From a virus: 64,000 nt of DNA. Where the stretch lies: the IMG/VR virus record IMGVR_UViG_3300045988_112808; one strand, 5' to 3'. Made by a program: the position numbers and the translations under genes. Every line of letters starts with the position of its first letter. The first letter of the stretch is position 1. Shown piece by piece: positions 47,450-52,630 of this stretch. The notes beneath the pieces were generated by a model, which had not been told where the DNA came from, made no database searches, and worked only from the letters and a program-made list of their open reading frames with translations.

Positions 47450-47602
47450 CTACTTAATACTGTGAATTATATTTTTTTTCTCTCTCCCACTATCTTCCCC
47501 TATAGGATTATTCCATCCGTATTTTACAGCCGTAGCTTTAAATAGAGGAAGTCTATAAAATCTATAATCATTCTCAAGATGAGTATATACTGTTGATTTC
47601 AT
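47450..47602 (-). CDS. small hypothetical protein (50 aa), ATGA overlap with methyltransferase stop
   Basis: ATG ORF below cutoff. Confidence 0.4.
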   Translation of the reverse strand: MKSTVYTHLENDYRFYRLPLFKATAVKYGWNNPIGEDSGREKKNIIHSIK

Positions 47603-48261
47603 TTCAGTTCTTTAATTAAAGCATCCGCATATATTACAGCTAATTCAGCCGCCTTATCACACGCTTCCAATATTAATTCACCGTGAGGTCCACGTCCCGA
47701 TACGGATGTGATCGGAAGTATGGTTTTTGCTATCTCGTATCTACGTTGTTCCCAATCTACATGGGTGTTACACGGTTCTTGATTGACCTGTATATATCTT
47801 CCTTCAATATTAGAAGATCTTAATGTTTCCGCATTCTCTTCGCCGAATGCAACCAGAATAGACCCACATCCTGGACTTTCACCTATTGTTCCATCTTCTC
47901 TGTGGAATTTTATCCTTCCTTTCATGAACAATATACCTTTTGCTTTCGGGAATACAACATTCTGAAACATCTTATTGTCAAGACGATTAAAAAGAAGAGC
48001 TATTCCATTATTGTGCTCTACCATACGAGTAATAAAATGCTCTATAGTCGGTCTTGAATAAGGTGGGTTTAACCATACCCTTCCTTCCCATTTTTGTTTT
48101 AATCCATCTTGCTCTTTGTTATACATAACCCTGGCTGTCCTCCATAACGGACGCATAGGCGCACATGGATCTAAATCAAATTCCCCTAAAGCGTCTATAA
48201 TTTCTTTAGGTGTGTACCATTCATCTGTACTGTTTTTAGATTTCTCAAATGATGTATTCAT
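47599..48261 (-). CDS. dam: phage Dam-type DNA N6-adenine methyltransferase
   Basis: DEWYTPKEIIDALGEFDLDPCA and WLNPPYS motifs. Confidence 0.8.
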   Translation of the reverse strand: MNTSFEKSKNSTDEWYTPKEIIDALGEFDLDPCAPMRPLWRTARVMYNKEQDGLKQKWEGRVWLNPPYSRPTIEHFITRMVEHNNGIALLFNRLDNKMFQNVVFPKAKGILFMKGRIKFHREDGTIGESPGCGSILVAFGEENAETLRSSNIEGRYIQVNQEPCNTHVDWEQRRYEIAKTILPITSVSGRGPHGELILEACDKAAELAVIYADALIKELK

Positions 48262-49222: not shown

Positions 49223-49699
49223 CTATGATTCTAATATGGTGTCTACAAACTCCGTTATTTTATCAACGGATTCTTTTGATAAGGTATATCTTCTCCAATC
49301 CCATCTAAAATGCGCTTTTGGGAGATTTTTAGTAGAATATTTTTCATTTCCGTCCTTGTTAGTCCATTCGTAATTATCCTCTGGATCCGCCACTTTTATC
49401 CCCGATTTAGGTCCGTTACGAAAGCTATATAGCATTCTTATAACCGATTCAAAATCCGAACCTATATCAAATAGCATATGATACGCCTTGTTTATTAAAG
49501 CCCTATCAGCTTGTTCCAAGTCTTCACCAAACAACTCTCTTACACTCCAATTTTTCATTTCTGAATAACGAATGAAATTAAGTTTCCCTTTTTCTATATT
49601 AGGATTTTTTCTTGATAATACAAGCTCCAAATCTTTCACAAATGATTCTTTTAGCTTCTGTTGTCCTAACAAGGCGGTGTATTTACTTACTATATCCAT
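49223..49699 (-). CDS. hypothetical protein
   Basis: ORF track. Confidence 0.6.
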   Translation of the reverse strand: MDIVSKYTALLGQQKLKESFVKDLELVLSRKNPNIEKGKLNFIRYSEMKNWSVRELFGEDLEQADRALINKAYHMLFDIGSDFESVIRMLYSFRNGPKSGIKVADPEDNYEWTNKDGNEKYSTKNLPKAHFRWDWRRYTLSKESVDKITEFVDTILES

Positions 49700-49965
49700 T
49701 ATCCAAAGTTTTTTAATATTACTCCAAACGAATCATATTTAACCCCTAATATATCATGTGCCTTTTGGGATCCACATTCACATTTTCCTACCTTCTGTCC
49801 TGATCCACACCCGCATAAGCCTATTCCCCAATGGTTGATACAGTGGTCGCAGCAGTAGGACTGGTGAAGCCATGTGGCATCACCAGTATCCAAATCCAAT
49901 TTTTTCAAATGTTTCCCAAAACATGCTATTCGAAGCACTATTATCAAATCTGATAGTGACTGCAC
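49699..49965 (-). CDS. Cys-rich metal-binding small protein
   Basis: CCDHC...CGCGSGQKVGKCECG. Confidence 0.55.
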   Translation of the reverse strand: MQSLSDLIIVLRIACFGKHLKKLDLDTGDATWLHQSYCCDHCINHWGIGLCGCGSGQKVGKCECGSQKAHDILGVKYDSFGVILKNFG

Positions 49966-50059: not shown

Positions 50060-50791
50060 TTAAAGCGCCTCATCAGTTCCTAAAAGATGCTCGTTACCCT
50101 CAAAATGAATACAATAATCCCATAATGTTCCATTGGAACATTCGTACTTATAAGGCAATCCATTATAATCGTCCACAATTTCCCTTGCAAACAAACTGAT
50201 ATTCCATTTTTTATTTCCTTCTTTTCTTACCAGCACTTTATCAAACGGCTTAAACTCATATTTCGGTTTTTCTTCAATCCCGAAGAAGCGTTTCAGATAC
50301 TCTTTAGCTTCAGGTTCTTTGCTTGCCTTTAATGCGTCAACCAACTTTTGTCTTTCGGACTCAGTGGCAAATCTGTATTTTTCTATCTGATTTTCCCAAG
50401 CAGATAAACCATCTTCTATTTTAAGAATACCTTTTTGATTTAAAGAGGCATAAAAAGACGTTAAATATTTCCCATGTGTATTTAAAATAAAGATATAGCT
50501 ACCATCTTTATTACTTAACACCTCTCCATCTTTAAATGTAATATATTCTGGAACTTCAAGAAGGAGGCGATTTTCGCTGCTAAGTGCTTTTCCTGTAGCA
50601 GAAAACCAATCTGCCGATACAGAAATCGAATGAATTACAACCAATAACGGACAATTTGACGAATTGTCTTCATATACGATTTCTGCTCTATTTTGTCCTT
50701 TCTCTGTCACAATCCGACCTGCTATTTCCCCTATGTTTATTTTTTTCGCCATTTCTAAATCAAACGGAATTGTTACTGTTTTCTGTTCCAT
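50060..50791 (-). CDS. hypothetical protein, tandem paralog A
   Basis: shares IPFDL..A.KI..GEI, FKPF.+VLVR, CI.+EGNEHLLGT with neighbour. Confidence 0.65.
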   Translation of the reverse strand: MEQKTVTIPFDLEMAKKINIGEIAGRIVTEKGQNRAEIVYEDNSSNCPLLVVIHSISVSADWFSATGKALSSENRLLLEVPEYITFKDGEVLSNKDGSYIFILNTHGKYLTSFYASLNQKGILKIEDGLSAWENQIEKYRFATESERQKLVDALKASKEPEAKEYLKRFFGIEEKPKYEFKPFDKVLVRKEGNKKWNISLFAREIVDDYNGLPYKYECSNGTLWDYCIHFEGNEHLLGTDEAL

Positions 50792-50795
50792 AATC

Positions 50796-51536
50796 TTATT
50801 TGTTTTTATTAGTTCCTAAAAGATGTTCGTTCCCTTCGTATGGGATACACTGACTAAATCCTACCCCTCCTAAGCATTCGTATTTATTATCTCCTACTGA
50901 TTCTCTGGAAAATAGATGCAATTTCCACCTCTCTTGGTTAGTTCTTCTCACCAGCACTCGTTCAAATGGTTTGAAGTCGCGTTTCGGCATCTCATCTAAT
51001 AGATACTCATATTCACTTAAATATCGTTTTATTATATCTATTTTTCTACTGTCTTCCGCTTTTATAATCTTTTCTGCTAAAAATTTCTTCTCTTCCTCTA
51101 TAGCCTTTCTTACATGCCGTTTTTTATCTTCATCATACACATCAGTCCATAATCCGCTATGATCAAACTCAATATCTCCAGATGTTACCATTCCACATAT
51201 ACTTCCCATTACCCCTTTGGTAATAAGTCCATCATATATAAATTGACATCCTTTAGTGCTTGTTAATACATCTCCTTTCTTAAAATACGCTCCAGCCTCT
51301 ACCCTCAATTCCAGAGTGGCGTCAGCAAAAGTACAACCTTCTGTGTTAGCATATATAGCACTTATCCCATATCCATCTTTTTTTACAAAAAGTAAATTAT
51401 AAGGACTTGTACAGTCTTTCGACTCATATACAAATTCTATTTCAATATCATTAATTAATACCGAACCTTCTATTTCTCCGCTTTTAATTTTTCTCGCCGT
51501 ATTTAAATCAAACGGAACAATAATTGGATTTTCCAT
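50796..51536 (-). CDS. hypothetical protein, tandem paralog B
   Basis: see paralog A. Confidence 0.65.
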   Translation of the reverse strand: MENPIIVPFDLNTARKIKSGEIEGSVLINDIEIEFVYESKDCTSPYNLLFVKKDGYGISAIYANTEGCTFADATLELRVEAGAYFKKGDVLTSTKGCQFIYDGLITKGVMGSICGMVTSGDIEFDHSGLWTDVYDEDKKRHVRKAIEEEKKFLAEKIIKAEDSRKIDIIKRYLSEYEYLLDEMPKRDFKPFERVLVRRTNQERWKLHLFSRESVGDNKYECLGGVGFSQCIPYEGNEHLLGTNKNK

Positions 51537-51565
51537 ATCTTTTCGTTTTTAATTGTTATAAAACA

Positions 51566-51588
51566 GGATGGGTTACTTACGCCCATCC
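51566..51588 (-). terminator. possible intrinsic terminator
   Basis: GGATGGG/CCCATCC stem; on minus strand followed by TGTTTTAT. Confidence 0.45.
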
Positions 51589-51616
51589 CAGTTGTTTCGC
51601 AATACTTTCCATCTCG

Positions 51617-52630
51617 CTATATGCAATCCGGTGGCATCCAGCGGTTAACAAATCGTTTTCGTACCGATTTAGACTCCACTGGTGGCCGGTGACGTCCTCC
51701 ACCAGACCGTGCCGAAACTCGGCGCATTGCCGACACAGCCCGCCACAGTTTTCTGGCTTCTGCTATTCCAATCTTTATCTGTTTACTTGTCTCAATAATA
51801 TTTCCTTTTATACGAATCCAGGCGTTAGGTTTTTCACCAGGAATATAGAAAGGTGTATTCAAGAAATTGATTTCTCCTGACTTCCACTCTTCCAGTTTTT
51901 CATCAAAATCCTTGTAACGGGCTTCTTCTTCCTTTCTTAATCTCTCTAATTTTATTCTTTCTCTTTCTTCCTCACCCTTTCTCCATCTTTCAGATCTTTC
52001 TGAATACTTAATCCATGTACCTTCCCCGCAAACTTCATCAACAATCACATTTACGGTCCCTAACACTTTTAATCCTTGATGATCTAATAAAATTTGAAAG
52101 ATGCGTTTTAATTCATGTACGTGCTTACGCTTGATACTATCTCCGCTCTTGGATAATTCATGATTGGTTCCAAGCCAATCATTAGCACTCTTTTTAAGGA
52201 TACTCTTAGCAGTCCCCATGTTAAAGAACTGAATGTAATCCATCATATTCCCAAAAGCGCCCCAAATATCTGTATAAGATAATTCTGTTTTAGCTCTTTT
52301 GTATTTTTCAATAGACTTCTTAATTGATTCCAGTTTGCTGGCAACAAACCTCATATTACCAGTATCCGATATATTATCCCCTACACTGAAAACCATTGCC
52401 CAAGTTGGTATCGCATTACGAACATAGCATTGATGTTTGCTCGTAGTAGCAGAATAATAATCTTCATTTATCAGGTATGCTTTCTTCCCTTGTTTGTTTT
52501 TTACTATTCTCCCGACTTCAAAGTGATGCCCATAAGAATAAATACTTGTACCTTCAAAGAAGAAATTGCTCCCTGATGCTGATTCTTCTTGTTCATGAGC
52601 CCACAAGTGAGCGACCATTGAATTGTTCAT
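51617..52630 (-). CDS. hypothetical protein with Glu/Arg-rich coiled-coil; C-terminal 35 aa encoded by GC-rich island
   Basis: ORF track. Confidence 0.65.
   Translation of the reverse strand: MNNSMVAHLWAHEQEESASGSNFFFEGTSIYSYGHHFEVGRIVKNKQGKKAYLINEDYYSATTSKHQCYVRNAIPTWAMVFSVGDNISDTGNMRFVASKLESIKKSIEKYKRAKTELSYTDIWGAFGNMMDYIQFFNMGTAKSILKKSANDWLGTNHELSKSGDSIKRKHVHELKRIFQILLDHQGLKVLGTVNVIVDEVCGEGTWIKYSERSERWRKGEEERERIKLERLRKEEEARYKDFDEKLEEWKSGEINFLNTPFYIPGEKPNAWIRIKGNIIETSKQIKIGIAEARKLWRAVSAMRRVSARSGGGRHRPPVESKSVRKRFVNRWMPPDCI

Follow-up and report, generated by a model that had tools for sequence, protein, structure and literature searches.

Two adjacent genes in a 64,000-nucleotide stretch of viral DNA (IMG/VR record IMGVR_UViG_3300045988_112808, referred to here in its entirety as the window) were found to encode members of a very large, uncharacterised family of non-structural proteins of Bacteroidales phages. 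The genes, which we call A (the downstream one) and B (the upstream one), are real paralogs that diverged anciently, and recombination between and within them is ongoing. The description that we consider probable is that both belong to a large unnamed family of cytoplasmic, non-structural proteins of about 245 amino acids (aa), encoded in early or accessory gene blocks, within which A and B separated anciently. Coordinates of all features are collected in Table 1.

A pair of paralogous genes

The two genes are co-oriented and adjacent, with only 4 nt between the stop codon of B and the start codon of A. A preliminary description of this region, made from the sequence without database searches, had claimed a tandem paralog pair with conserved blocks and diverged middles, and in this it was borne out: BLASTP aligned the two proteins over nearly their full length (A residues 3-241, B residues 2-244) with 30% identity, 48% positives and E=7e-32, a statistically significant similarity over about 240 aa. 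When all six-frame open reading frames (ORFs) of the window were searched with phmmer, A and B were each other's sole matches (E ~1e-28), and neither whole-protein queries nor per-domain hidden Markov models (HMMs) revealed a third copy or a single-domain relative in the window. The picture of conserved blocks around a diverged middle is accurate because identity between A and B is 32% in the N-terminal domain, 20% in the middle barrel, 21% in the helical hairpin and 49% in the C-terminal domain. The shared motifs quoted earlier are likewise present (FKPFDKVLVRK/FKPFERVLVRR and CIHFEGNEHLLGT/CIPYEGNEHLLGT in the pair), except that the N-terminal IPFDL is a feature of A only, B having VPFDL.

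Direct orthologs of both genes, in the same position and order, were found in crAssE-Sib (OR575929), a 151-kb human-gut genome of an epsilon crAss-like phage from the proposed genus Epsilonunovirus (PMC11054128), with which a 4-kb stretch of the region shares 88% identity over 91% of its length. The orthologs (WOZ57383.1 and WOZ57384.1; about 80% identity for A and about 91% for B) are annotated as hypothetical and are undiscussed in the crAssE-Sib paper (PMC11054128). The crAssE-Sib version of A differs in being 393 aa long and fused to a downstream zinc-ribbon gene, which has been lost from the window.

A large family without an assigned function

Sequence searches placed A and B in a family of considerable size. 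More than 1200 clusters at 90% identity were recovered for each of them, and a profile of 20 orthologs matched 3536 clusters at 50% identity when the cut-off was E<=1e-3 and 1404 when it was E<=1e-10; full-length proteins of about 245 aa are numerous among them. Against members from unrelated Bacteroidales phages A scored a mean of 150 bits, with 35-55% identity, and B a mean of 80 bits; some members carry source names as hypothetical proteins of Bacteroides. Ten diverse genomic contexts were inspected and all ten proved to be phage or prophage non-structural blocks, including a Mu-like phage, a prophage on a 2.1-Mb contig and several phage contigs of 60-170 kb. The neighbouring genes there encode, among others, NinG, DEAD helicases, KilA-N, YopX, Gam and helix-turn-helix regulators, and in every case the family gene was present as a single full-length copy.

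No published description of the family was found in literature searches. Neither A nor B had a match in Pfam, NCBIfam, PADLOC (at E<=1) or the annotated PHROGs, and no Pfam family was matched by 74 diverse relatives or by longer, multi-module relatives. The same 74 members gave no significant sequence match to the PDB, and profile searches of the PDB returned only marginal hits to eS4 (E=5e-4) and SH3 (E=0.68). Two PHROGs were matched by relatives, but not by A or B: phrog_4466 (70 positions, unknown function) by 40 of 126 family members, at residues ~28-71 of the N-terminal domain (best E=2e-8), and phrog_1945 by one middle module of the family protein P0260. Both are short (70-94 positions), represent single sub-domains and have no function attached. 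With hmmscan, A had no PHROG match at E<=0.1 and B only weak, unrelated ones, phrog_4466 being reached by neither.

Predicted domain architecture

AlphaFold modelling of A gave a mediocre model with 20 sequences (predicted local distance difference test, pLDDT, of 73) and a confident one with 126 diverse sequences (pLDDT 87.6; predicted template modelling score, pTM, 0.61). The model divides the protein into an N-terminal alpha/beta domain, with a helix predicted at aa 12-19 followed by strands, a middle SH3-like barrel with a helical hairpin, and a C-terminal SH3-like barrel. Conservation between A and B is highest in this last barrel, whose domain HMM scores ~85 bits against both. In four longer relatives (P0260, P0279, P0355 and P0387) the usual N- and C-terminal domains enclose two or three copies of a module consisting of a barrel and an ATEEEK-type hairpin, and because this module recurs between constant ends the architecture can be called modular. 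Comparison of the N-terminal, middle and C-terminal beta-rich domains by hhalign gave no significant internal repeat (best E=0.048).

No obvious set of catalytic residues was seen, the well-conserved positions being mostly hydrophobic, glycine or proline; conserved aromatic residues are F86, Y114, W196, F201 and Y230. A signal peptide is absent from the family proteins, which are acidic (median isoelectric point (pI) 5.2, net charge about -8). In the model the barrels have the five-stranded SH3-like fold of the Royal-family readers, and this type of barrel is shared with Tudor, PWWP, chromo and Sm folds. However, sequence identity between those proteins and the A/B family is 5-18%, and the Pfam Tudor, PWWP, chromo and SH3 models matched neither A, nor B, nor the 74 relatives. 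The resemblance is one of fold class and does not argue for homology, nor for the reading of methyl-lysine or DNA.

Age and origin of the pair

The proportion of synonymous sites that differ between A and B (pS) is saturated, at 0.70-0.79, everywhere outside codons 1-25, so the split between the two genes is old. Within codons 1-25 pS is 0.31, with the same codon used for 11 of 13 identical residues, and the similarity at the DNA level reaches about 20 nt into both leaders. Either recombination has homogenised the 5' ends, as their appearance suggests, or these ends are under constraint.

The possibility that the pair arose by a recent tandem duplication in place, with rapid divergence of the middle thereafter, would fit the adjacency, common orientation and 4-nt spacing of the genes as well as the likeness of their leaders and first 25 codons. 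It is contradicted by the saturation of pS across codons 26-243 and by comparison with other phages: the A-B score (104 bits) is not above that of members from unrelated phages (about 105 bits), and two proteins encoded singly on other phage contigs, P0257 and P0267, resemble B more strongly (E=1e-38 and 1e-41) than A does. We therefore regard recent duplication as essentially refuted. Of the earlier statement that these are duplicated genes, the paralogy has held up and a recent tandem event has not. A more distant epsilon clade (loci L063-L081) has an A-like copy only, which shares 56% identity with A and 33% with B. The sequence evidence fits an ancient local duplication and an acquisition equally.

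Variation and recombination among related loci

A set of 81 related loci was collected by similarity to A, so that A is present in them by construction. Intact B accompanied A in 37 of these, and B was cleanly absent from many close relatives in this comparison across related phages, which the preliminary description had proposed. Both genes are accessory. Several loci had a split or truncated B, or an A shortened at its 5' end. In others (L016, L032, L033, L041, L043, L048 and L054) the gene that lies upstream of B in the window abuts A directly, with no B; the L016 version of this gene shares 99% identity with that of the window. In six loci of one sub-clade (L017, L019, L020, L024, L031 and L034) the position upstream of A was occupied by another, highly divergent member of the family, and further partial-domain ORFs lay a few kb away, the whole arrangement falling at about 3.4-8.3 kb of each locus. 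In L006 and L070-L079 an ORF of 180 aa with only the N-terminal domain was located about 7 kb upstream. The partial-domain ORFs indicate that domains of the family also circulate as separate genes. Since close relatives lack B or have other occupants in its place, B is dispensable and its slot is polymorphic.

Recombination was evident from several types of mosaic. Orthologs of B are 54-96% identical, and many are truncated or chimeric. P0027 has the N-terminal half of B joined to A; P0153, P0157 and P0217 have the N-terminal and middle parts of B joined to a C-terminal domain of the A type; and in P0275 the upstream gene is joined to the C-terminal half of B. Divergence of the two genes is also discordant between loci (A 75% and B 96% identical in L021; A 84% and B 68% in L004), and the alignment of A orthologs contains alternative allelic cassettes in the region of the variable hairpin. 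A comparable phenomenon is provided by the two BRO_N/KilAC anti-repressors of crAssE-Sib, which are paralogous non-structural genes varying in copy number across Epsilonunovirus (PMC11054128); these belong to a different family and, unlike A and B, have recognisable domains and a proposed role.

One or more small zinc-ribbon genes follow A in 58 of the 81 loci and are fused to it in forms of 393-402 aa. In the window there is a remnant of 15 codons (VRKLELQEYLSPDIL...) just beyond A, which, judged by its sequence, is the scar of a deletion, and this deletion also accounts for the unusual C-terminus of A, TDEAL.

Selection on A and B

The ratio of nonsynonymous to synonymous divergence (dN/dS) was estimated from pooled pairwise NG86 comparisons among orthologs (1115 pairs for A, 384 for B). 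Whole-gene values were 0.34-0.37 for A and 0.33-0.35 for B, the highest of the eight genes measured, six neighbouring genes giving 0.09-0.31. By domain the ratio ranged from 0.19 to 0.63, and in a sliding window of 20 codons it peaked at aa ~111-140 in both paralogs, reaching 1.00 in A and 0.86-0.87 in B; no window in either gene exceeded 1. This stretch corresponds to two strands of the middle barrel in the model. With whole-gene values of 0.33-0.37 and a local peak of ~0.9-1.0, selection on both genes is mainly purifying, apart from one patch where it is relaxed or possibly diversifying, and the estimate for the patch is unreliable because of recombination and the discrete allelic cassettes. 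The earlier characterisation of the genes as diversifying therefore finds weak support, limited to this patch of 20-30 codons.

A diversity-generating retroelement (DGR) is carried by crAssE-Sib. Targeting of the variable patch by a DGR was considered for the window and rejected, as no template-like repeat was detected: blastn of 50060-51536 against the whole window gave A-B matches only.

Possible functions

Within the description given at the outset, it is tentatively suggested, at not quite an even chance, that A and B act as non-enzymatic binders or adaptors. During infection the barrels would bind a ligand, either protein or nucleic acid, the conserved C-terminal barrel serving a common function and the variable middle barrel providing specificity. 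A is the typical copy, kept by all the A-bearing epsilon crAss-like relatives examined, and B an extra, faster-diverged copy, which on this view would offer a dispensable second specificity. The polymorphic slot of B, between the upstream gene (337/353 aa) and A, is occupied by B itself, by a split B or by some other divergent member of the family, or is empty. Chimeras arise by recombination between and within the paralogs, which also appears to have homogenised the first ~25 codons.

The preliminary description had interpreted the pair as duplicated, diversifying anti-defence or host-interaction genes, in which case the variable middle would track a rapidly evolving host target and the second copy would widen the range. 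Several observations are compatible with this: the genes lie in an accessory block, the presence of B is polymorphic, copy number varies (with extra family members in some of the loci between L017 and L034), alleles are mosaic, and dN/dS is higher than in the neighbouring genes, with a patch of 0.9-1.0 at the same place in both paralogs. In addition, Foldseek gave a weak match to a Tad2-like model in BFVD (E=1e-4; template modelling (TM) scores 0.24/0.41). However, the root-mean-square deviation of that alignment is 12.2 Å, and DUF2829 was not matched by A and B in full length, by the 74 relatives or by 10 N-terminal domains searched in isolation (E<=10), so that the lead to Tad2, the anti-Thoeris sponge, has no support at the sequence level. 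Purifying selection dominates in both genes, no anti-defence Pfam family was matched, and 35-55% identity across very different phages fits a housekeeping-type accessory role equally well. Nothing in the library searches linked the pair to anti-defence or host interaction, and we regard this interpretation as rather unlikely. A further reading, in which the family is a widespread, unrecognised class of modular binders in gut Bacteroidales phages that neutralise or redirect a host factor such as a defence protein, strikes us as distinctly unlikely; were it true, the choice of target would be set by the variable beta-hairpin of the middle barrel, and more targets could be reached through additional copies like B or through repetition of the barrel-hairpin module. 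The family could also be imagined as a DNA-associated factor linked to the methylation or replication of phage DNA, perhaps one that binds DNA through PWWP/Tudor-like barrels and partners or regulates the neighbouring methyltransferases. A DNA methyltransferase gene was indeed located 0-2 genes upstream of the family gene in four of the ten contexts, but all four come from two related lineages and none was nearby in the other six, so the link is not general. Acidic proteins (pI about 5.2) are moreover atypical of DNA binders, the fold matches are generic, and a role of this kind appears improbable.

A considerable part of the human gut virome consists of epsilon crAss-like phages, the majority of whose genes are without an assigned function; this pair had been deposited as hypothetical proteins in a published relative, and tandem or clustered accessory paralogs are commonplace in phages. 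What is new is the size of the family, its domain grammar and the existence of natural variants with and without B that could serve in experiments. The pair ties one unannotated gene to a very large and structurally well-defined family across unrelated Bacteroidales phages, which is useful annotation and a candidate new domain family rather than surprising biology.

Genomic neighbourhood

Table 1. Features of the A/B region, with positions in the window.
Feature	Position	Strand	Basis or remarks
Gene A, 243 aa	50060..50791	minus	ORF, downstream position; typical family member
Gene B, 246 aa	50796..51536	minus	ORF, upstream position; divergent, dispensable paralog
A, N-terminal alpha/beta domain, aa 1-82	50546..50791	minus	AlphaFold model; motif PFDxExAKKI..GE.EG.IVT
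A, middle SH3-like barrel (aa 83-142) and helical hairpin (aa 143-176)	50264..50545	minus	Longer family members have 1-3 copies of this module
A, C-terminal SH3-like barrel, aa 177-243	50063..50263	minus	AlphaFold model; motif FKPFDKVLVR...W...F...CIPYEGNEHLLGT
A, variable beta-hairpin, aa ~111-140	50372..50461	minus	Highest local dN/dS, about 1.0 at aa 111-130
B, equivalent variable patch, aa ~111-140	51117..51206	minus	Local dN/dS 0.86-0.87
5' end and leader of A, matching those of B (51465-51557)	50717..50814	minus	blastn, 74% over 98 nt, 81% over 53 nt
Remnant of zinc-ribbon gene(s), 15 codons	50014..50058	minus	tblastn of the P0010 extension, 87% over 15 aa
Dam-like N6-adenine methyltransferase	47599-48261	minus	Pfam PF05869, E=9e-15
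Nucleotidyltransferase, 220 aa	48280-48942	minus	PolyA polymerase/CCA-type by crAssE-Sib annotation
Cysteine-rich ORF, 88 aa, downstream of A	49699-49965	minus	CCDHC...CGCGSGQKVGKCECGS; no Pfam match; 74-aa gene in crAssE-Sib
Gene upstream of B (337/353 aa)	51580-52630	minus	Frameshifted at about 51723-51734 relative to the 353-aa crAssE-Sib ortholog
GC-rich hairpin between upstream gene and B	51566-51588		GGGATGGG...CCCATCC, then TGTTTTAT on the coding strand

The small unannotated genes around A and B, together with the methyltransferase and the nucleotidyltransferase, place the pair in a non-structural block. The nucleotidyltransferase is the most constrained gene nearby (dN/dS 0.09), and the 88-aa cysteine-rich protein, from its composition, may bind metal. 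With regard to methyltransferases in other loci, the family gene stands 0-2 genes after an N6_N4_Mtase or C5 DNA_methylase gene in L082-L085, L087 and L088 (5252-5995).

The gene upstream of B is interrupted by a frameshift, with residues 1-299 in one frame and the conserved last 48 in another, and is a single ORF in 57 of 65 relatives, some of them 98-99% identical; possible causes are misassembly, a mutation that arose recently and a programmed shift. The hairpin between this gene and B may, from its sequence, be an intrinsic terminator, in which case B and A would form their own transcription unit. No convincing promoter was identified, sigma-70-type motifs and the Bacteroides -7 motif TAnnTTTG occurring at or below chance.

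On a larger scale, every gene between ~22 kb and 64 kb of the window lies on the minus strand. At ~22000 both GC and AT skew change sign and gene orientation switches from plus, where there are two giant ORFs (2033 and 2137 aa), to minus; this point marks the boundary between two transcription modules.
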